Virus record (IMG/VR): IMGVR_UViG_3300050026_000188
Strand: one strand, 5' to 3'
From: a virus
DNA length: 47,912 nucleotides
The notes under the pieces were generated by a model. The model did not search any database, was not told the origin of the DNA, and was given only the letters and a program-made list of their open reading frames with translations. The translations under genes were made by a program, and so were the position numbers. Below, piece after piece: positions 962 to 47,912 of the stretch (within the stretch, counting starts at the first letter, position 1; each line of letters opens with the position of its first letter).

Positions 962-1639
962 ATGAAGTTTTACGTTTACGCCCACAAAACGATATCCCCG
1001 CGTAAGGCGGGCGAGGTCTTTTATATCGGCAAAGGGCAGCGACGGCGCGCTTGGCTCGCAACTGGGCGCAATCCTCACTGGCAACGGGTTGCATCCAAGT
1101 ATGGATTCTCCGTCATTATTCTCGCGGACGGACTAAGCGAAAAGGCGGCTTTTGACCTAGAGAAGTCGATCATTCTCATTTGCGGCCGGGCGGCTCTCTG
1201 TAACCTTACAGACGGCGGCGAAGGCATCTCGGGTGCTTCGGAAGAGATTTGCCGGAAGATCAGCGAGCGTCACAAGGGTAAACCCAAGAGTGCTCAGCAT
1301 AAACAGAAAATAGCGGCATCGCATAAGGGGATTCGGCCATCAGAAGAAACCCGAGTCAGACTCAGAGCACGCCGACCGTCCGAAGAAACTCGCGCAAAAC
1401 TCAGTGCTTCTCAAAAGGCTCGCAATATAACCGCTCCCTCAGATTTTGCCGAGCGTAGCGCTTCCATGCGAAAGGCCGTTACTTGCTCCAACGGCATGAT
1501 CTTTGATTCGGTTAGTGCTGCTGCCACATGGGCTCGGAAGAACGGCTTCCCGAAAGCGGCTACAAGCAATATCAGCAACGTCTGTAATGGCCATCGCCCA
1601 TCAGCTTGCGGTGGCCTGACCTGGGCATTCGTCAAATGA
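962..1639 (+). CDS. GIY-YIG homing endonuclease with NUMOD3-like repeats
   Basis: N-terminal FYVYAH...GEVFYIGKG...R motif (GIY-YIG); twice-repeated SEETR..L (NUMOD3-like); free-standing immediately upstream of the large terminase. Confidence 0.8.
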   Translation: MKFYVYAHKTISPRKAGEVFYIGKGQRRRAWLATGRNPHWQRVASKYGFSVIILADGLSEKAAFDLEKSIILICGRAALCNLTDGGEGISGASEEICRKISERHKGKPKSAQHKQKIAASHKGIRPSEETRVRLRARRPSEETRAKLSASQKARNITAPSDFAERSASMRKAVTCSNGMIFDSVSAAATWARKNGFPKAATSNISNVCNGHRPSACGGLTWAFVK

Positions 1640-3099
1640 TTTCCATTACTGAGGACGAAACCGAGGAAGCCGCTGCCGAAGAGATATTCGCCCGTCGCAA
1701 CGGGCAGAAGACGATGTACGGGTATATCAAATACACGATGCTTGGTTATAAAACATCGACATTTGCCGAACGAGTATGCGCGGCGATTGACAAATTTATA
1801 ACTGATGTGCAAGCGGGCAAGCGTCCGGTTTTGATTCTTCAAGCTCCCCCGCAGAGCGGAAAATCTGAAATAGCTTCTCGCAAACTACCGGCTTATTTAC
1901 TTGGCAGGTTCCCCGATTGGCGCATTGCGGCTTGCAGTTATGGTGATGAATTGGCTGGAGCAATGGCGCAAGATGTTCGCCGAAATATCAACTCGCTTGA
2001 GCACCAAAAGCTATTTCCAGCCCCGGAAGAAAAGAAGAAATACGACGTAAACCGAATGGGAGATTTTACTGCGCCAGGTGGCACTGGCAGTTATTTGGGG
2101 GTGGGTGTCGGGGGCGGTCTTACTGGCAAGAGCGCGACCATTGGAATCATCGATGATCCAATCAAAAACGAAAAGGAAGCGCTCAGCGTTACAACTAAAG
2201 AGGGGCTATGGTCTTGGTATCAAGCTACTTTTACAACGCGGCTTTCCCAAAATTCAGGTCAAGTCATAATGGCTACATCTTGGGCGGTCGATGATCTGGT
2301 TGGGCGCATCATCGATCACTTCGCCGGCGATCCCCGTCTTACTCATTTGCGATTCCCGGCGATCAACCTGCCCGATGAAGTCGGATATAACCCCAAATTA
2401 CCAGAAGGTGCTCTCGTTCCCGAGCTTCACAGTCTCGAAAAACTATATGAGACTAAAGCTCTTTTTTCCGATTATTGGTTTTCATGCTTGTATCAGCAGA
2501 GCCCGAAGGCTCTGGGCGGCAACGTCTTCAAGGATTTTTGTATTCAGTATTACAACCCGAACGATCTGCCGAAGAAATTTGACAAGGTAATAGCGTCTTG
2601 GGATTGCACTTTCAAAGACACGGACGGGACCGATTTCGTAGTCGGGCAGGTATGGGGCAAAAAGGGAGCCAACAGTTATCTACTTGATCAGATCCGCGCT
2701 CGCATGAGTTTCAGCGTTACATGCAAAGCCATCGTTACCCAGAAACTAAAATGGCCGCAGATTCGCGAGGTGCTGATTGAGGACAAGGCTAACGGACCGG
2801 CAGTTATTGACGTGCTCAAGGCTCAGGTGCCTGGCATCATCCCGATTGAGCCCGACGGCTCGAAGCTCGCCCGCGCCCATGCGGTTACATGCTACTGGGA
2901 AGCGCTCAACGTATGGCTTCCTAATGAAGCTCTTTGCCCGTGGATAAAGGCTTACGTCTCCGAGATGACTACCTTCCCGGCGGCCGCCCATGATGATCAA
3001 GTGGATAGTACGACTCAGGCGCTCCGCCGGCTCTATCCCTTATTCGGAAGGCTCAAAATAAATCGGAATGCCATAAACAAGGCACTTGGGATAAGGTAA
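1636..3099 (+). CDS. terL: Terminase large subunit
   Basis: Walker A-like PQSGKSE, Walker B-like IGIIDDP, C-terminal nuclease motifs (ASWDCTF, AAAHDDQVDS); the ATG at 1636 overlaps the endonuclease stop (ATGA); the ORF track starts at 1606 with an alternative codon. Confidence 0.85.
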   Translation: MISITEDETEEAAAEEIFARRNGQKTMYGYIKYTMLGYKTSTFAERVCAAIDKFITDVQAGKRPVLILQAPPQSGKSEIASRKLPAYLLGRFPDWRIAACSYGDELAGAMAQDVRRNINSLEHQKLFPAPEEKKKYDVNRMGDFTAPGGTGSYLGVGVGGGLTGKSATIGIIDDPIKNEKEALSVTTKEGLWSWYQATFTTRLSQNSGQVIMATSWAVDDLVGRIIDHFAGDPRLTHLRFPAINLPDEVGYNPKLPEGALVPELHSLEKLYETKALFSDYWFSCLYQQSPKALGGNVFKDFCIQYYNPNDLPKKFDKVIASWDCTFKDTDGTDFVVGQVWGKKGANSYLLDQIRARMSFSVTCKAIVTQKLKWPQIREVLIEDKANGPAVIDVLKAQVPGIIPIEPDGSKLARAHAVTCYWEALNVWLPNEALCPWIKAYVSEMTTFPAAAHDDQVDSTTQALRRLYPLFGRLKINRNAINKALGIR

Positions 3100-38483: not shown

Positions 38484-38512
38484 AGAGTATCAATTTACTA
38501 GTAAGCTGTCAA
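38484..38512 (-). promoter_or_regulatory. Promoter-operator cassette copy 1
   Basis: Minus strand: TTGACA - 17 nt containing TTACTAGTAA - TACTCT, then leader with AGGAGG. Confidence 0.4.
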
Positions 38513-39243: not shown

Positions 39244-39272
39244 AATCTACCAGGTTACTAGTTATCTGTCAA
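39244..39272 (-). promoter_or_regulatory. Promoter-operator cassette copy 2 (variant palindrome, leaderless layout)
   Basis: TTGACA - 17 nt with TAACTAGTAA - TAGATT, then 6 nt to ATG. Confidence 0.4.
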
Positions 39273-40435: not shown

Positions 40436-41335
40436 ATGACACCCAATAACTACCCCGTAATTACACCGCTAGCCATTCGGGGTAATTCTAAGCGCCCGTT
40501 TGCATTGTGGATGCCCGGCGCGGTAATGTGGGAAGCCAGGGATATGCTCAGTGATCGTCAAAAACGTTTCGTCTTCCATCAGGCTCGCATTACTGATGGT
40601 GCAAAGGCTTACGTATTGGCAGGTTACAGCGAGCAGGGAGCGGCTCAAGGCGCTTCGCGTCTGTTACAGAACGTTGAGATACAGGAAGCTATAGAGGTTG
40701 AGCGGGCGGACCTGGCCCGTGTCGCGAGCCTGAGCCCCGAATGGGTTTTGAATCGATGGATGTTGATCGCCAGCGCGGACCCGAGAGATCTGATCCATAC
40801 CCGCATCGGCTGCTGTCGGCATTGCTGGGGCATTGATAACAAACGGGAATGGATGGAACACGAATACGCTACCGCGCTCAACGAAGCTCTGACTTGCATG
40901 TTGCTGCCGCCGGCCTTCGAGGGTGGCCTAGGGTACTCGCCGACTCGCGAGCCTAACCCTGACTGCCCTAAGTGCAAGGGCGAAGGCTTGCCGCGGACCT
41001 GGCTCGCCGACTCCCGCAAGCTGAGCCGTTCGGCCGCGGCTCTCTTCGCTGGCGTAAAGCAGACGAAGGATGGGATTGAGATCAAGATGCACGATCAGCC
41101 CGAAGCGCTCAAGTCGCTCGCCGATTACCTGGGGATGCAGAACAAGAGCAGCGCCGATGTAAAGCTGGCTGCGGCTCTGGTGGTGGGCGGGAGCGCTAAG
41201 GATCTCTCAGACGATGAGCTTGCCGGCATCATTGAGCGGGGGCGGTTGCGGAGGGCTCGAGCTGCGACTTTGGGGGTATCTGCGGGGGTATTATCGCCGG
41301 CGGCGTTGCCAAGTAAGACAATCGAGGGCACTTAG
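40436..41335 (+). CDS. terS: Terminase small subunit-like protein (SPP1 G1P / Terminase_2-like) with Cys-rich insert
   Basis: LSDRQKRFVFHQARITDGAKAYVLAGYSEQGAAQGASRLLQNVEIQEAI...RVASLSPEWVLNRWMLIASADPRDL matches the small-terminase N-terminal pattern; CCRHC / CPKC cysteines. Confidence 0.65.
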   Translation: MTPNNYPVITPLAIRGNSKRPFALWMPGAVMWEARDMLSDRQKRFVFHQARITDGAKAYVLAGYSEQGAAQGASRLLQNVEIQEAIEVERADLARVASLSPEWVLNRWMLIASADPRDLIHTRIGCCRHCWGIDNKREWMEHEYATALNEALTCMLLPPAFEGGLGYSPTREPNPDCPKCKGEGLPRTWLADSRKLSRSAAALFAGVKQTKDGIEIKMHDQPEALKSLADYLGMQNKSSADVKLAAALVVGGSAKDLSDDELAGIIERGRLRRARAATLGVSAGVLSPAALPSKTIEGT

Positions 41336-41467
41336 TGCCGGCTTCGAGTCCCTAAGTAGGAGCGATGCACTAAAAAGCCCCCTCAGTTGAGGGGGCTGGC
41401 GGCACTCGGGGAGCCGGTTAGATGTGCATAAGAGCGCGATTGGATGCGAGCGAACGGGGGAAGCGTC

Positions 41468-41641
41468 TCAGCGTCGCATTCTTCCGGCGAAGGGATCAGG
41501 GCGGCCCAGGGCTGCTGTGACGCGCGCCAGCTCGATCTGATCAAGCATCGGCAGATCGGGTTTGGAGCCGATCTGATCTTTGATCGTCAGGGCTAAGATG
41601 GTGAGCAAGCTGAGTGCGGCAGGGATAAACAAAATGTACAT
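41468..41641 (-). CDS. Small membrane protein
   Basis: ATG with GGAGGA upstream; hydrophobic helix ILFIPAALSLLTILALTI. Confidence 0.3.
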   Translation of the reverse strand: MYILFIPAALSLLTILALTIKDQIGSKPDLPMLDQIELARVTAALGRPDPFAGRMRR

Positions 41642-41659
41642 GGAATCCTCCAAGTTGAG

Positions 41660-41688
41660 ATATTACCAAGTTACTAGTAAGCTGTCAA
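41660..41688 (-). promoter_or_regulatory. Promoter-operator cassette copy 3
   Basis: TTGACA - 17 nt with TTACTAGTAA - TAATAT, then leader with GGAGGA. Confidence 0.45.
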
Positions 41689-41858
41689 GAGTTATTTTCA
41701 TTTATTTCGAGCGTTTCCGCGTCGCATTCTTCCGGCGAAGGGATTGGGGCGGCCTTTACAACCTGGGCGCATACCAGGTGCATCGCGGCGCGGCGGGCTT
41801 TGCTACTGGGGGACGCGAGCAGGATCGCCAAGCTATCAGAGAGGATCTTCGCGGTCAT
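41685..41858 (-). CDS. Hypothetical small protein
   Basis: Short ORF; 3' end carries the same ~35-bp element as the neighbouring gene. Confidence 0.25.
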   Translation of the reverse strand: MTAKILSDSLAILLASPSSKARRAAMHLVCAQVVKAAPIPSPEECDAETLEINENNS

Positions 41859-42103
41859 GCTGCTACCTCCCACGCCCACGCGCCAGGCTTGTAAGTGCTC
41901 TGCGAGAGCTTCGAGCCGCGGAGAGTGATCACGCGAAGGCTACCGTCTGCCCGCAACACCAGAGCGCCCCCGCGCCGGCGAGCCCAGGCGTTGACGGCCG
42001 CCTTCCATGATGCCGCTTTCGTGGCGTTCGCGAGATTGCGCCATTCGGCAACGGTGAGAAGGTTGGTAGGCTGAGCGTTCGGGTTGAAGTTCGTAACTGT
42101 CAT
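41855..42103 (-). CDS. Small protein, paralogue B (MTVTNFNPNAQPT... N-terminus)
   Basis: Shares N-terminus and 5' leader with the upstream gene. Confidence 0.3.
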   Translation of the reverse strand: MTVTNFNPNAQPTNLLTVAEWRNLANATKAASWKAAVNAWARRRGGALVLRADGSLRVITLRGSKLSQSTYKPGAWAWEVAA

Positions 42104-42406
42104 TTTTGGGGTATCCTCTCGACTGCAGATACAAGAGCCTCAGCGATCCGCCGCAACGTTGCAGCATCGAAGGCGTAGTTATTCGCGGCGTTGATCCTGG
42201 CGGCCATCTCTTCGCAGGTGAGTTCCGGCGTGTTGAGGTAACGAGTGATCTCTTGAAAGAGATCCCCAGTAACTTGGTAATCTATATATGCAGTCGAGAG
42301 GATACAGCAAAATGCTTTCGTGGCGTTCGCGAGCTTGGTAGGCTGAGCGTTCGGGTTGAAGTTCGTAACTGTCATTTTTGGGGTATCTTCTCGACTGCAG
42401 ATACAG
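42015..42406. repeat. Direct repeat of about 95 bp (42015..42133 and 42314..42406) carrying leader + N-terminal coding sequence of two adjacent small genes
   Basis: Near-identical copies differing by one 28-bp indel and one substitution. Confidence 0.8.
42100..42375 (-). CDS. Small protein, paralogue A (MTVTNFNPNAQPT... N-terminus)
   Basis: ATG at 42375; the ORF track starts at 42414 with an alternative codon. Confidence 0.3.
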   Translation of the reverse strand: MTVTNFNPNAQPTKLANATKAFCCILSTAYIDYQVTGDLFQEITRYLNTPELTCEEMAARINAANNYAFDAATLRRIAEALVSAVERIPQK

Positions 42407-42433
42407 ATTAGCAAGTTACTAGTAAGCTGTCAA
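42405..42433 (-). promoter_or_regulatory. Promoter-operator cassette copy 4
   Basis: TTGACA - 17 nt with TTACTAGTAA - TAATCT. Confidence 0.4.
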
Positions 42434-42825
42434 CATAATAATGAATCTAATTTATATTCGGCCTGCAGGCGAACGCGAACGGCGTCAAGCGCCAGACATT
42501 CGGCCTTTACGAATTCGTAAGCCTTCGGGAAGCCCATCGCCGGCAGTGCGTTGCGCTGAGCAAACTTCGCTTCCTGGGCGCGGTACTCTGGGGACTGGCG
42601 AAGGATTGCTTGAGCCGCCCTGGTGCGTTCGGCGCGGTACTCATCAGCCGCCGTCTTCGGGTGAGCGATGCCAGTGTTGCGGGTAACGCATACCGAGCCG
42701 TAATGAAGGATCTCACCAGATGAGAGAAGCTCAACGGCGAAGGTTCCCTTGAGCCCAGTCTTACCGCAACAATCGCAGTTTGTAACCTCATCAGTGAAGC
42801 CGAAGATCTTGAATTTGTTTTCCAT
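42430..42825 (-). CDS. Cys-rich hypothetical protein
   Basis: NCDCCGKTG ... C motif; ATG 6 nt downstream of a -10-like hexamer. Confidence 0.35.
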   Translation of the reverse strand: MENKFKIFGFTDEVTNCDCCGKTGLKGTFAVELLSSGEILHYGSVCVTRNTGIAHPKTAADEYRAERTRAAQAILRQSPEYRAQEAKFAQRNALPAMGFPKAYEFVKAECLALDAVRVRLQAEYKLDSLLC

Positions 42826-42831
42826 AAAGAG

Positions 42832-42860
42832 ATATTACCAAGTTACTAGTAAGATGTCAA
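42832..42860 (-). promoter_or_regulatory. Promoter-operator cassette copy 5 (leaderless layout)
   Basis: TTGACA - 17 nt with TTACTAGTAA - TAATAT, then 6 nt to ATG; the 44-bp surround is nearly identical to copy 3. Confidence 0.45.
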
Positions 42861-42869
42861 GAGTTATTT

Positions 42870-43026
42870 TCAAATTCTTTTAGAAGCAATCGTTCCCTTG
42901 CTTCGCGGTATCCTGAGCTTGCGATAGAGGGTTCCCCTTCCAATCTGGATCAGCTTGGCTGCTTGGCGCTTATCGCCGTCGCATCGACGTACGGCCTCAT
43001 GGATCAGTCGCATCTCAAGCTCTGCC
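42870..43026 (-). CDS. Fis-type helix-turn-helix DNA-binding protein
   Basis: MAELEMRLIHEAVRRCDGDKRQAAKLIQIGRGTLYRKLR matches the Fis/NtrC C-terminal HTH pattern; ATG at 43026 (ORF track starts further upstream). Confidence 0.5.
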
Positions 43027-43153
43027 ATCGTTGGCAGTGTGTCGCCAAGTTCAAGGATCGGCTTCGGGAGTGGCCGCCGGCATCGTACACAGAAGGCTCG
43101 AACAAACTGATTTAGACCGCATGAGCAGCGCACTGATGGCCGCACATCGCACG

Positions 43154-43354
43154 TCACTCCGCGCCCCCGATCTCAGCGATCAGCGCCCGTATGCTCTCAA
43201 CGCTCCAAACCCGAATACGCGGGCTGAGCAGCCGGCCGGCCGGGAAGCGGCCACTTTTGACGCCCGCCCACCAGGTTGCACGGCAGACGGGGATGACGGC
43301 GAGTATTTGGGGCAATCTCACAAAACCAACTTCAGGAAGGTTCATACACTCCAT
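43154..43354 (-). CDS. AlpA-family regulator / excisionase-like HTH protein
   Basis: FVRLPQILAVIPVCRATWWAGVKSGRFPAGRLLSPRIRVWSVESIRALI matches the AlpA pattern. Confidence 0.6.
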   Translation of the reverse strand: MECMNLPEVGFVRLPQILAVIPVCRATWWAGVKSGRFPAGRLLSPRIRVWSVESIRALIAEIGGAE

Positions 43355-43442
43355 TGTAGTCCATTACCCTCTATCGTTGGGCATAACACGCAAGCGCCAG
43401 TTACCTTGACGTGACTTTGGTTACCGGGGTACTGTTGGCGAT

Positions 43443-43703
43443 ATGGCAACCCCCAACCCGCTAGACGAGATGAATTGGGAAGATCGCTTTATGTATGCGT
43501 TCCGCAGCGTGCTAGTGCTTGAGAACAGGCTCGAAGATGCGCTCGCACTACTCAAAGAGCAACGCCCTGAGATTGTGATTTTGCACAACGGCGATCAGGT
43601 TCAAAAGCTACGCGAGCGCCATCAGATCAGACAGCTACGCAAAGAAGGTGTGAGTTATCGGAACATCGCGAAGCGCATTCAACAGTTGCGGAAAGTAATT
43701 TGA
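43443..43703 (+). CDS. Hypothetical small protein with basic C-terminus
   Basis: 86-aa ORF; C-terminal RQLRKEGVSYRNIAKRIQQLRK could be a DNA-binding helix. Confidence 0.3.
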   Translation: MATPNPLDEMNWEDRFMYAFRSVLVLENRLEDALALLKEQRPEIVILHNGDQVQKLRERHQIRQLRKEGVSYRNIAKRIQQLRKVI

Positions 43704-44165: not shown

Positions 44166-44231
44166 CCGTATCCCCAAAAATACCCCTCTCGGCTTGCGCT
44201 TTACCCGCCCAGAGGGTGGTGCTAGTTACTC

Positions 44232-47200
44232 CTAGTTACCAATGCAAATATAGCGAATTGCGTCACTACCTAAACCGCCATCATCTGAAAATGTCACCGA
44301 CGATCCACTTGTGTAAGTAACTCCCAGTGCGTTAAGATTGATGGTGCTGACTGTTGCGCTCGTCATACAGGCATAAGAGGATGAACTGGTAAATATGGCT
44401 GACCCGCTAAATGTCACCGTTGCAGCACCACCAGAAAGCGTCGTCAAGCCCATCACTGTGTGCGCAGATGTCAGTTGCGTCCCGGCGGCGTTGTAGAGCG
44501 TTCCACCAGGGCACCCCGTCCCATCCGCAAGGCAGTGGGCTTCTGGTACTCCGCTACCATTCAAGTCTGTGCTGCCCGCTCCTGCTGAAGATACACCTGT
44601 GCTACTTACTTGAAACTGGCTACTTGAACCAACGGATAGCAACGCCGCTGGCGAAGTCGTCCCGATGCCGACGTTGCCTTGGAAAATACCTCCACCTGTT
44701 CCAACCCACAGACTCTTCCAACGTTGGCCCGTAACCCCAAGGTTAATCGTATTATCGAAGGCGGGGGCCGGATTAAGACCAGTTGCGGTTAATTGCATTA
44801 CATCCTCATAAGCTGGGGAACCCGGCAGCTCAAAAGCGAGCGTGGTATACGTGCTCTGCGCACCAATCCTTAAAACATTATAGGTGCTGTCCAAATATAT
44901 AAAGGCTGGCGGCGTCTGCCCATTTATTACGATTGGGTTGGCAAAGACTGTAGGATTTCCGGCGATAGTCAGGCCGCCCGTGCGCAATGCGCCAGTGCCA
45001 AGATCAAGAGCCTGTACAGGGCTCGTCGTCCCGATACCGACGTTGCCGTTATTATCTATCCTGACCTTTTCCGTTGGTCCACTAAGACCATCATTTTGCG
45101 TGAGAAAACGAATCTGCGATAGTGTATTTTGCGAACCAGATACGATGTCAAGTATTCGTGCATAGATGCCTGCCGTTGGGAAATTTTGAGCTTGGTAAAA
45201 ATTGAAAACACCTTGGTCACTAATACCATATGTTCTTAAATTAGTATCAGTAGACGGATTTCCCAAAGACAACTGCCCACTCGGCCCCGTCGTCCCGATG
45301 CCGAGTCTATGATTCGTCGCATCCCAGAAGAAATTGGAATTGTCTTGTGCGATGGTTGAGCCATTTGAGAACAACACGGAGCCAGAGGTTAGCGAAGGCA
45401 AAGTGAATGTCCCGTAAGTATTTGTGTCCAGCGCAAACGTCCCTGCTGCCGTCATCTTTACGAATGGTGTGCCCGTAGTCCATGTCGGATAATTCAACGC
45501 GCCCCATGTGCCTACGGAAGGCAGAGCCGTGCATCCCCCGCTGGACATCAATGCGCCAGAGCAAGAGCCGGAACCAAACAGCGCCGTTATATCGCTGTAT
45601 AGCGGAGTGCGCCACGCCGTGTTCCCACTATTCGCCACGCCAATCGTGTTTGCTCCGGGGTAGGTCATGGTACTGCCCGGAGTCTGCCATCCCTGAGCTG
45701 TTGCCCCAGAGTTCATCCCCCAGACTTGGTTTGCCGTGCCGTTGGTGCTGAGGTTTGTGGCTGTGGATGAGTTGCCAGTAAAAGCGGCTCCATGAAGTGT
45801 CGCTAATCCGGCTGCACTACCGAAGTATTCATCAGTTACCGCAGCATTGCCAATTACTGCTGTGTTGGAACCTGCTCCAACTGCCGTCGATCCTACTACA
45901 ATTTCGTTTGTGTTACCATTCGCACTTGCCTGTGTGTTCTGCCCCAGGAAAGTCCCGTAGCTACCCGTTATATTATGATACCCAGTAGGAAGTAAAGTTC
46001 CTGCTAAATAGCCCGCTGCTGTATTACCATTGCCCGTAGTAGTGAACTGAAGCGCCCCACTTCCAATTCCGGTACTGTAACTCCCAGAAGAGTTTGTAGC
46101 TAGGGTATTATTTCCGATTCCTATGTTATTGCCCCCACTTGTAAGATTGTAGAGGGCAGAGTCCCCTAAGCCTATATTGTTACTACCTGTCTCTATGCCA
46201 CCGTAACCTATTGCCTCAGCACCTATCGCGATATTGAATGATCCAGAGGCACCAAGTAGGTTTGATGTACCTATGGCAATGTTCACTGTGCCGGTAGAAC
46301 TTGCTAAAGTGCTACTATTACCGATGGCAATCGAACTAGCTCCTCCATACGTCAAGGGCAAACCGCCCCCTAAATTCAGATTAGAAGATGGGATGGTATA
46401 AATTGCGACCCCACTATCCTGAACCTGGTCCCCTGTTCCGGTAAAGGTTACGGCATCATTGGCGGTTGCGCTGCCGGGTCCGGTGACTGGGTTGGTAAGC
46501 GCGAGTTGGAAGTCCGTAGCCGCATGAGTCGCCGCCGTCCCTACCGTTGTAGAACAGCCGCTCGCTCCGTTGCTCAGATCGCCACATGCTGCTTGACTGA
46601 ATGTTGCGCTGCCGTTCGACTTGACCGCGCCTGTCACGGCCCCCGCGTTGTCCGCCTTCGTGCCTTGTGCCGCCGTGGCATAAGCCGTGGACGCGGTGTA
46701 AGCCGCCGACCCAACCGCACCGCTGCCAAGCAGCACCGAGCCACTTCCATAGGTACTTAGCTCGCCCAGCACGCCGCTGTTGTTGTACTCGATGTGGCCA
46801 GTCGTGCCACCCGCAATCGTCGTGGTGCCTACGGTGATCGTTCCAGCAGATGCGGATATGGTACAGGTTCCACCCAGGGCGCAGTTCTGGCCGTTGACCG
46901 TAGTCACCGAGTTTGCTAAGGCTGCGTTCGGTACCGCCTCATACGTCACCGTGTTCGTACCGGTCACTACCGGTACGGTGTTGGTTGAAGGGCTGGAACC
47001 GTAGCTAACTCCATTCACCACTGCAACCGTGGGAGTTGCGGTCGTCACTGCTGTCAACTGCCCCGCTGCGTTGTAGGTGATAACTGGTATCGCTGTCGCG
47101 CTTCCCGTCGGCCCTGCCGCCGTAATGACCCCACCCGAGGGGACGTGGCTTGCCGATGTGCCGATAGGGAGGTAGGAATAGCCCACAGTCCCAGACGAGA

Positions 47201-47912
47201 TGTTGCTGGCGTTGGAGGCGTAAGTTTCAGCATTCGATTGAGCCGTGGAAGCTGCGCCAGAAGCATCATAGGCCGTTGATGCGGTAAACGCCGCAGTACC
47301 AAATACGCCCCCAGCCGCAGTCGTCAGATAGGAAAGCGTCGTTACGGTTGGCGCAACCGGAGTGTAGGTCAACGCGGTAGTCACCTGGCCAGAGGTCATG
47401 CCGGTTAGGTTCGCCATACTGAAGGTCGGTGCCGCCGTGAAAGTCGGAGCCGCGCTGCTGCCGGTGAAGTTGCCAAAAACGGTGTTCGCCGCCTGATTCT
47501 TGAGTGTTGCCGTGACCGTTCCGCTGGTTGTTACCGCTGTACTCGGAGTCGAACTGTCCACCGTGCCATCGCCCGTGAAGGTCACGCTGCTTACGCTTCC
47601 CGTAGATGTTCCGCACGTTGGGCAAGAGATCGCTCCCGTTGCCGCGACTACAATTGGGAGTGTTCCGCTCAGTCCAGCCGAACCAACCGAGCCGATGGGA
47701 ATGCCAGTCGGCAGATAACTCACTCCAATGGTTCCAGTGTTGATGTGGCTGGCATTCTGCGCGTAAGTCTCGGCATTGCTCTGAGCCGTTGCCGCCGCAC
47801 CGGAAGCATCCGCTCCCACACTTGCCGCTGTTGCCGAGATCGCCCCCGCCGTGTTGAGGATGCTTGTCCCATCCGGCTTCACGCCTCCGAGCACGGTCGA
47901 AGTCGCCGTGGG
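44232..47912 (-). CDS. C-terminal part of the giant secreted tail-fibre-like protein (N-terminal part at 907..1)
   Basis: ORF is open to the window edge and matches 1..77; A..S..A..S fibre-type repeats (TAQSNAETYA.NAS twice); several N.GIGTTSP motifs. Confidence 0.6.
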   Translation of the reverse strand, partial: PTATSTVLGGVKPDGTSILNTAGAISATAASVGADASGAAATAQSNAETYAQNASHINTGTIGVSYLPTGIPIGSVGSAGLSGTLPIVVAATGAISCPTCGTSTGSVSSVTFTGDGTVDSSTPSTAVTTSGTVTATLKNQAANTVFGNFTGSSAAPTFTAAPTFSMANLTGMTSGQVTTALTYTPVAPTVTTLSYLTTAAGGVFGTAAFTASTAYDASGAASTAQSNAETYASNASNISSGTVGYSYLPIGTSASHVPSGGVITAAGPTGSATAIPVITYNAAGQLTAVTTATPTVAVVNGVSYGSSPSTNTVPVVTGTNTVTYEAVPNAALANSVTTVNGQNCALGGTCTISASAGTITVGTTTIAGGTTGHIEYNNSGVLGELSTYGSGSVLLGSGAVGSAAYTASTAYATAAQGTKADNAGAVTGAVKSNGSATFSQAACGDLSNGASGCSTTVGTAATHAATDFQLALTNPVTGPGSATANDAVTFTGTGDQVQDSGVAIYTIPSSNLNLGGGLPLTYGGASSIAIGNSSTLASSTGTVNIAIGTSNLLGASGSFNIAIGAEAIGYGGIETGSNNIGLGDSALYNLTSGGNNIGIGNNTLATNSSGSYSTGIGSGALQFTTTGNGNTAAGYLAGTLLPTGYHNITGSYGTFLGQNTQASANGNTNEIVVGSTAVGAGSNTAVIGNAAVTDEYFGSAAGLATLHGAAFTGNSSTATNLSTNGTANQVWGMNSGATAQGWQTPGSTMTYPGANTIGVANSGNTAWRTPLYSDITALFGSGSCSGALMSSGGCTALPSVGTWGALNYPTWTTGTPFVKMTAAGTFALDTNTYGTFTLPSLTSGSVLFSNGSTIAQDNSNFFWDATNHRLGIGTTGPSGQLSLGNPSTDTNLRTYGISDQGVFNFYQAQNFPTAGIYARILDIVSGSQNTLSQIRFLTQNDGLSGPTEKVRIDNNGNVGIGTTSPVQALDLGTGALRTGGLTIAGNPTVFANPIVINGQTPPAFIYLDSTYNVLRIGAQSTYTTLAFELPGSPAYEDVMQLTATGLNPAPAFDNTINLGVTGQRWKSLWVGTGGGIFQGNVGIGTTSPAALLSVGSSSQFQVSSTGVSSAGAGSTDLNGSGVPEAHCLADGTGCPGGTLYNAAGTQLTSAHTVMGLTTLSGGAATVTFSGSAIFTSSSSYACMTSATVSTINLNALGVTYTSGSSVTFSDDGGLGSDAIRYICIGN

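Follow-up and report, generated by a model that had tools for sequence, protein, structure and literature searches.

In the model of phage mosaicism by illegitimate recombination put forward by Hendrix, Hatfull and colleagues, joints form at sites of little or no homology and not only at gene boundaries, and the forms observed are the viable survivors. P22 sar and P1/P7 c4 are cis-antisense regulators of phage early or immunity genes, and the stoperators of L5-type mycobacteriophages are repeated asymmetric sites that lie within transcribed regions. In T4-like phages, PeSL cassettes combine a recurring sigma70 early promoter, preceded by an A/T-rich stretch, with a stem-loop; they stand before the ORFans of hyperplastic regions and mediate the recombinational shuffling of modules (Arbiol et al. 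2010, PMC2839356; Comeau et al. 2014, PMC4122927). In this study, we analyzed a pair of adjacent minus-strand small genes in IMG/VR record IMGVR_UViG_3300050026_000188, a 47,912-nucleotide (nt) stretch of viral DNA (hereafter the window), and compared the locus with these systems. The upstream gene (gene 1) is an open reading frame (ORF) of 91 amino acids (aa) running from an ATG at 42375 to a stop at 42100, and the downstream gene (gene 2, 42103..41855) encodes 82 aa. The locus most probably results from a recent multi-junction rearrangement in a variable, cassette-rich early small-gene region, in which gene 1 arose as a chimeric fusion by ordinary phage mosaicism.

A repeat search detected two pairs of direct repeats, 42060-42133 / 42332-42405 (74 nt, 97% identity) and 42015-42038 / 42314-42337 (24 nt, 96%). 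Read on the minus strand, copy A (42405 to 42314, 92 nt) equals copy B (42133 to 42015, 119 nt) less exactly 27 nt, with two mismatches in a single-gap test. The gap comprises nine codons, is in frame, and has endpoints that float within an imperfect CAAcCT/CAAtCT repeat; its placement rests on the explicit single-gap test and on BLASTP, as MAFFT positions the gap of the two copies badly. Copy A contains leader copy L1 (GTATCTGCAGTCGAGAAGATACCCCAAAA, 42376..42404), with the Shine-Dalgarno-like GAGAAGA of gene 1, followed by gene 2 codons 1-13 and 23-30 (K-LANATKA). Copy B, the form found in relatives, contains leader copy L2 (42104..42133), with the Shine-Dalgarno-like GAGAGGA of gene 2 and without a −35 or −10, followed by the intact 5' end of gene 2. 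In both genes, the GAGA(A/G)GA element begins 18 nt 5' of the ATG, leaving approximately 11 nt between the two. Apart from the deletion, only a single fixed substitution and a single polymorphic site separate the copies. At the latter, position 42388, two further contigs of the phage (L001 and L011) have GAGAGGA, matching L2, so that the two leaders are identical in some contigs.

The two proteins have the common start MTVTNFNPNAQPT, and a BLASTP comparison aligned only residues 1-21 of gene 1 with residues 1-30 of gene 2, across a 9-aa gap; the remainder was unrelated, and homology over most of the length, as expected for true tandem paralogues, was not detected in this comparison. A first-pass annotation of the same DNA had proposed that the genes share their start together with the leader, that their downstream parts are unrelated, and that the C-terminus of the upstream gene is encoded by the second leader. 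These points are borne out by the repeat of 92 and 119 nt, by the confinement of the alignment to the N-terminal residues, and by the reading of SAVERIPQK and TGA from L2. Pairwise alignment of the two copies likewise confirmed the repeat, with its two mismatches and one 27-nt gap; what had been described as a 28-bp insertion in one copy is actually a 27-nt in-frame deletion in the upstream copy. The description of the genes as paralogous does not stand, as only 21 residues of gene 1 come from gene 2 and its body belongs to a separate family of 62-aa proteins. Homology searches with both proteins connected the body of gene 1 with P0005 and P0006, and gene 2 with P0001-P0003.

Judged from these alignments, gene 1 is a four-part chimera, and treating it as a gene 2 paralogue is not useful. 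Residues 1-21 derive from gene 2, residues 22-36 from antisense regulatory DNA, residues 37-82 from the 62-aa family, and residues 83-91 from leader L2. The first part of the unit includes the gene 2 promoter and leader in addition to codons 1-13 and 23-30. The second part, the 15 residues FCCILSTAYIDYQVT, is the antisense reading of an inverted promoter −10/leader fragment. This fragment (L', AGTAACTTGGTAATCTATATATGCAGTCGAGAGGATACAGCAAAA, plus strand, 42268..42312) is an inverted third leader copy inside gene 1 that the first-pass annotation did not mention, and it is composed of part of a promoter spacer, the extended −10 TGgTAATCT (42275-42283) and the leader GCAGTCGAGAGGATAC (42290-42305), with an ATG at 42312-42314. 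L' is complementary to 42376-42420 over 45 nt (87%) and to 42104-42131 over 28 nt (89%); it matches no leader variant at any locus examined, and a donor cassette would be expected to carry the leader variant GGATACAGCAAAATG.

The third part (GDLFQEITRYLNTPELTCEEMAARINAANNYAFDAATLRRIAEALV) matches the 62-aa proteins P0005 (90% identity) and P0006 (73%). Proteins of this type in the related contigs L003 and L006 start with MREARALL(T/A)RAK and are encoded directly 3' of an AlpA-like gene. In the window, the family body occupies 42130..42267 on the minus strand and corresponds to codons 17-62 (GDLFQ...AEALV), the native start and stop being absent. Its DNA is 90.6% identical to L003 505-643 over 139 nt, and the ratio of nonsynonymous to synonymous substitution rates (dN/dS) of the body is 0.13-0.34 against relatives, the full range given for the body being 0.13-0.40. 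The fourth part, SAVERIPQK and the following TGA, is read from L2, and the TGA overlaps the gene 2 ATG (ATGA). Within the 62-aa body (codons DLFQEI), 42247-42264 (GATCTCTTTCAAGAGATC in the minus-strand reading) forms an 8-bp inverted repeat with a 2-nt spacer; a synonymous CAG-to-CAA difference from L003 makes this repeat perfect and also creates TTGAAA on the plus strand, 19 nt upstream of the inverted −10.

Four junctions connect the parts. The first (J1) is the 27-nt deletion, with CAA microhomology; the second (J2) joins gene 2 codon 30/31 to the inverted ATG and shares at most 1 nt; the third (J3) joins the inverted spacer to the 62-aa gene at its codon 17, without evident homology; and the fourth (J4) is a (T)GTAT join to leader L2 with 4-5 nt of microhomology. 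At the 3' junction, the sequence is gaggctctcGTATGA in L003 and gaggctcttGTATctgcag in the window (also given as gaggctcttGTATctgcagtcgag). The J4 join removed the stop codon of the 62-aa gene and any promoter that followed. Because a cassette directly follows the stop of the 62-aa gene in L006, a short deletion between two GTAT motifs would suffice for J4.

The relatives of gene 2 allowed us to assign the ancestral state. The homologues P0001-P0003 showed 90, 87, and 73% identity. In L002, L003, and L005, a promoter cassette with the −10 TAATCT and the leader GTATTTGCAGTCGAGAGGATACCAACCC lie directly 5' of a gene 2 that is intact and contains the 27 nt; in L004 (73% identity), the promoter and leader sequences differ and the same 27-nt codons are present. 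The presence of these codons in L002, L003, and L005, and also in the more distant L004, identifies the gap as a loss of 27 nt from the upstream copy. The upstream copy also retains the ancestral AAG (Lys), as the relatives have WRKLA, whereas gene 2 of this phage has AAT (WRNLA). Taken together, the comparison with relatives indicates that cassette, leader, and gene 2 form the ancestral unit, in which gene 2 is the original and the upstream copy is derived. Gene 2 itself lacks a −35 and a −10, and after the rearrangement the only cassette 5' of gene 1 and gene 2 is P2 (minus strand, 42405..42433), which consists of TTGACA, a 17-nt spacer containing TTACTAGTAA, and TGcTAATCT. The same TAATCT −10 precedes gene 2 in L002, L003, and L005. 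P2 was not called by a simple consensus scan because its −10 matches at only 3/6 positions.

A profile search with gene 2 gave 54 clusters, and most of the matches of approximately 80-125 aa covered nearly the whole profile (roughly positions 2-81), so that the N-terminus is part of the folded domain and not a portable tag. Gene 2 belongs to a conserved family of proteins of roughly 80-100 aa. The dN/dS values of gene 2 among close relatives were 0.09-0.57, and both parental families (gene 2 and the 62-aa family) have dN/dS below 1. Gene 2 is approximately 89% identical to its nearest relatives, whereas the direct copies differ at only one or two sites; because the copies differ far less than gene 2 does from its relatives, the rearrangement is recent or the copies have been homogenized. 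Neither Pfam nor PHROGs nor PADLOC returned a significant match for gene 1, gene 2, P0005, or the distant relatives of gene 2. The AlphaFold2 models had a mean predicted local distance difference test (pLDDT) score of approximately 66, and Foldseek searches against the PDB gave no match with E < 0.001; the top matches (the beta-phosphoglucomutase cap and SH2 domains) were treated as noise.

From these observations, we reconstruct the origin as follows. In the ancestor, as the relatives show, the cassette and leader GCAGTCGAGAGGATAC drove gene 2 directly, and the 62-aa gene was situated further upstream, with its own start, just after the AlpA-like gene. In the present sequence, a second copy of the promoter, the leader, and the first 30 codons of gene 2 precedes a 5'-truncated 62-aa gene. 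This copy has lost 27 nt between CAA microhomologies, and the 45-nt inverted promoter/leader fragment joins the two pieces. With its stop and the following promoter lost at (T)GTAT, the 62-aa frame continues through leader L2 and ends at the gene 2 ATG. The duplication may stem from unequal or homologous exchange between repeated cassettes, and the remaining junctions may stem from microhomology-mediated illegitimate joins or template switching. The inverted leader was most likely left behind as a by-product, and its complementarity to both leaders is probably incidental. As a consequence of such a rearrangement, P2 would drive a polycistronic unit of gene 1, gene 2, and a 57-aa gene (minus strand, 41685..41858; ATGA overlap with gene 2), the last gene of this unit before cassette P1 and one also called in L007-L011. 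The 62-aa body would borrow the ribosome-binding site (RBS) and start of gene 2 to give a 91-aa fusion product, and gene 2 could be translated from its own Shine-Dalgarno sequence, by coupling to gene 1, or both. The recent modular shuffling proposed in the first-pass annotation thus stands as far as recent shuffling is concerned, but a simple duplication is too little, as the locus also holds the inverted 45-nt fragment and gene 2 has lost its promoter.

Several observations weigh against this origin. No intermediate genome was found, that is, neither one with a full-length 62-aa gene, cassette, and gene 2 nor a donor of the inverted fragment; because of this, both the sequence of events and template switching as the mechanism are proposals. 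Complementarity of the inverted fragment to the leaders reaches only 87-89%, whereas the direct copies are 97-100% alike; being more diverged, the fragment must differ from them in source or age. At two of the four junctions, microhomology amounts to 1 nt at most. In addition, the product of gene 1 is putative, and given how recently the event took place, the intact frame, which chance would provide in approximately 1 in 3 cases, is not evidence of selection.

The rearrangement lies among repeated promoter cassettes, which were recognized as sequence matches to the sigma70 consensus. Their form is AAAATAACTC-TTGACA-GCTTACTAGTAACTTGG-TAATAT, with a shared extended −10 (TGn). Three cassettes with at most two mismatches were found on the minus strand, at 42860-42832 (P3, 5' of a 131-aa gene), 42433-42405 (P2), and 41688-41660 (P1, TTGACAGCTTACTAGTAACTTGGTAATAT), against a chance expectation of 0. 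Weaker cassettes at 39272 (39244-39272) and 38512 (38484-38512) bring the total to five, all on the minus strand and of the form TTGACA-N17-TAAT(A/C)T. The spacer includes the perfect, A/T-rich 10-bp palindrome TTACTAGTAA, whose four exact occurrences in the window all lie in cassettes (four of the five). At the equivalent position, one promoter of L004 has the perfect palindrome CCTACATGTAGG, and its counterpart has the imperfect CTACGTGTAG (promoters at 590-620 and 1049-1077); the half-sites are altered symmetrically, from TTAC-TA-GTAA in the window to CTACATGTAG in L004. This pattern suggests that the palindrome is a candidate operator for a dimeric, phage-specific repressor; candidate repressors are an 86-aa helix-turn-helix-like protein encoded on the plus strand at 43443-43703 and the Fis-type protein encoded at 42870-43157. 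Like the stoperators, it is one conserved short site repeated at several transcription units, and its symmetry is kept in L004 although the sequence has changed; unlike them, the site in the window is palindromic and lies inside a promoter spacer. In L012, a cassette and the start of a leader (GTATCGCAGTCGAGAG) at 1230-1335 are followed at once by a terminator-like hairpin (GAGCCCACCCCGGGCTC-TTTATTT) and then by a second cassette; this unit could give a very short non-coding transcript or be an insulated promoter pair.

The closest analogue of this arrangement is PeSL-mediated shuffling, although the locus is not a member of that family. As in PeSL, near-identical sigma70-type cassettes (TTGACA-17-TAATAT/TAATCT with TGn) are repeated in one orientation, with an A/T-rich stretch upstream of the −35 and with the Shine-Dalgarno sequence and start codon at the 3' edge. 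Small genes of variable content lie behind the cassettes, and the repeats supply homology by which genes could be moved, duplicated, or deleted together with their expression signals. The placement is also hyperplastic: the genes that lie between cassettes are not the same in the window, L002, L003, L006, and L012, whereas the flanking AlpA-like gene and terS are shared. The PeSL stem-loop has no equivalent here, because TTACTAGTAA, the 10-bp A/T-rich palindrome in the spacer, has no loop and only two G.C pairs, and no G+C-rich stem-loop or terminator-like site was found at any cassette in the window; one cassette of L012 has a GAGCCC..GGGCTC-TTTATTT hairpin, which is not a general feature. 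The phage is also not a T4-type myovirus. The window appears to represent most of an uncultured tailed phage of approximately 48 kb with TerL, portal, an NrS-1-type primase-polymerase, a DUF2800 nuclease, a helicase, and a ParB-like protein. Its TerL is approximately 51% identical to podophage-type records of Proteus and Stenotrophomonas (51-53% for Proteus phage RS51pmB and Stenotrophomonas phage B2) and 43% identical to that of Bcep781-type phages, and a megablast search of INPHARED with 5 kb around the locus found no close relative. Finally, most breakpoints at this locus are illegitimate joins in coding sequence, outside the cassette homology, and they lead to a chimeric ORF instead of a clean gene swap.

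In the latter respect, the locus resembles the illegitimate-recombination model, as it contains chimeric small genes in a non-structural region. It differs in that the survival of the parental forms in relatives lets each joint be placed at nucleotide resolution, and in that a direct duplication, an inverted fragment, and two deletions are combined in one event set. The locus offers a nucleotide-level case of the birth of a new phage small ORF in which both parents survive and four junctions are readable. Antisense regulatory DNA supplies one stretch of the new protein, and a 5' leader supplies another. Repeated early-promoter cassettes may act as shuffling points outside T4-like phages. No new mechanism or function is revealed; the locus is a new example of a known mosaic process.

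We consider it possible, though not the probable case, that gene 1 is a dead remnant and that the sole outcome of the rearrangement is a gene 2 promoter that now lies approximately 270 nt further upstream. Gene 1 no longer has the 16 native N-terminal residues of the 62-aa family, 15 residues are encoded by antisense regulatory DNA, and the AlphaFold2 model is confident only for residues ~40-88, with pLDDT below 60 over the new N-terminal 40 residues and a drop at the last few; the event would also be too recent for visible decay. However, the reading frame survives three junctions and enters the 62-aa body in its native phase, and a canonical Shine-Dalgarno sequence and ATG are inherited from gene 2. 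This allele is moreover the sole one seen for the phage in at least 23 contigs, and a second fusion shows that halves of the family can persist in fused form in the same phage group. The latter, P0007 (L012 274-555), is a reciprocal chimera located just 3' of the AlpA-like gene, in which the first 31 residues of the 62-aa family (MNEARALLARAKSYVPGDLFRDIDAYLRVPQ) are followed by an unrelated 62-residue C-terminus.

An unlikely alternative is that the three leaders constitute a selected RNA-level device, in which L' either pairs with L1 or L2 and hides the RBS of gene 1 or gene 2, which would set how the two proteins are balanced or coupled, or provides, through the inverted −10, an antisense RNA. 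Such an RNA would run across the gene 1 start and would also be complementary to the gene 2 start (72/74 repeat positions), as in P22 sar or P1 c4. In silico, the L1:L' duplex had an energy of −28.8 kcal/mol, and the 5' 139 nt of the mRNA folded into this L1:L' hairpin at −39.1 kcal/mol with a z-score of −4.5, which favors the device. In the full transcript the L':L2 duplex (−39.2 kcal/mol) was predicted to prevail, with a pairing probability of 0.84 and with the gene 2 Shine-Dalgarno sequence unpaired at a probability of approximately 0. In favor of the device are also the extended −10 (TGn) common to all cassettes, which L' retains, and the polymorphism at 42388 (A to G on the mRNA strand), which turns an A.C mismatch of L1:L' into a G-C pair in some contigs. 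On the other hand, complementarity follows automatically from an inverted copy of a repeated cassette, and L' is absent from every relative examined (L002, L003, L005, and L004), so that neither conservation nor covariation supports the device. The best −35 for the inverted TGgTAATCT is a poor one (TTGAAA, 19-nt spacer), and the consensus scan called no promoter there; the only plus-strand ORF behind this −10 has nine codons. No plus-strand terminator was found in 42290-42500, and Rfam gave no match in 41300-43500. With sar and c4, the locus shares a repeated target sequence and an opposite-strand promoter-like element directed at the start of an early gene, from which any transcript would run over the RBS. 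Unlike them, it has no terminator and is not conserved in the relatives; with its weak −35, the resemblance is formal only. We give still less credence to the more specific idea of L' as a newly born riboregulator placed between two identical translation-initiation regions, which would pair first, during transcription, with leader 1 and block gene 1 and would then, once leader 2 exists, switch to the more stable pairing with leader 2, leaving gene 2 dependent on gene 1 ribosomes or on an antisense RNA that hits both starts. If true, this would be a case of recombining promoter cassettes giving rise to a regulatory circuit, observed just as it forms.

The first-pass annotation had named an assembly artefact as the result that would overturn the duplication, and this can be practically dismissed, because the same arrangement recurs in many independent assemblies, with 99.8-100% identity in six further contigs from different samples, the longest ungapped repeat segment (74 nt) is below typical read length, and the 27-nt gap tells the copies apart. 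The six contigs whose DNA was examined (L001 and L007-L011, from six samples) all keep both copies over the locus, and the identical 91-aa product is on record in 35 protein-collection blocks, from which 23 contigs were read (several JGI samples, one ENA, and IMG/VR). Insertion of a transposon with target-site duplication was also rejected, as the repeats are 92 and 119 nt long against the 2-14 bp expected and the 180 nt between them consist of a gene fragment and a promoter fragment instead of an element with terminal inverted repeats or a transposase. A 29-nt piece of the repeat occurs at no other place in the genome collection and, among viral contigs, only in a second contig of the same phage. 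Similarly, exact-pattern scans for the leader and cassette found only that second contig in IMG/VR and nothing in genome_contigs or metagenome_contigs. Scans guided by protein sequence turned up only distant relatives of gene 2 that lack the cassette (L014, L015, and L016), which are silent on the rearrangement; L014 lies in a Thalassospiraceae metagenome-assembled genome, a weak hint at the host. The longest contig with gene 1 has 49,110 nt.

The minus-strand small-gene cluster around the locus (41383-43354) extends from the AlpA-like gene (43154-43354) to an intrinsic terminator (minus strand, 41376..41397) that ends it, and it is convergent with terS. In the slot next to the AlpA-like gene, where relatives have the 62-aa gene, the window has a gene for a Fis-type helix-turn-helix protein (minus strand, 42870-43157; PF02954, E = 1.3e-10) with the same overlapping junction. 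A second partial duplication, 41462-41506 / 41710-41754, has 45 nt with 91% identity. The copy at 41710-41754 corresponds to the 3' end of the 57-aa gene (…PSPEECDAETL), and the copy at 41462-41506 ends a small membrane-protein gene (41641-41468) in another frame (…GRPDPFAGRMRR); the L006 homologue of this membrane protein stops earlier, without the duplicated tail. Together with the variable gene content between cassettes and the chimera P0007, this duplication shows that shuffling is general in the region. If the window is a permuted whole genome, terS (40436-41335) is not adjacent to TerL (1606-3099), and the small-gene cluster, a divergent plus-strand gene, and a 1220-aa ORF lie between them. 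The 1220-aa ORF (minus strand, 44232-47894) reaches nearly to the end of the window and gave no Pfam or PHROG match up to E 0.1. L001, which is otherwise 99.9% identical to the window, has 21 differences within 136 nt at 44209-44344, the 3' end of this ORF; this divergence is a sharp mosaic boundary or a variable C-terminus.

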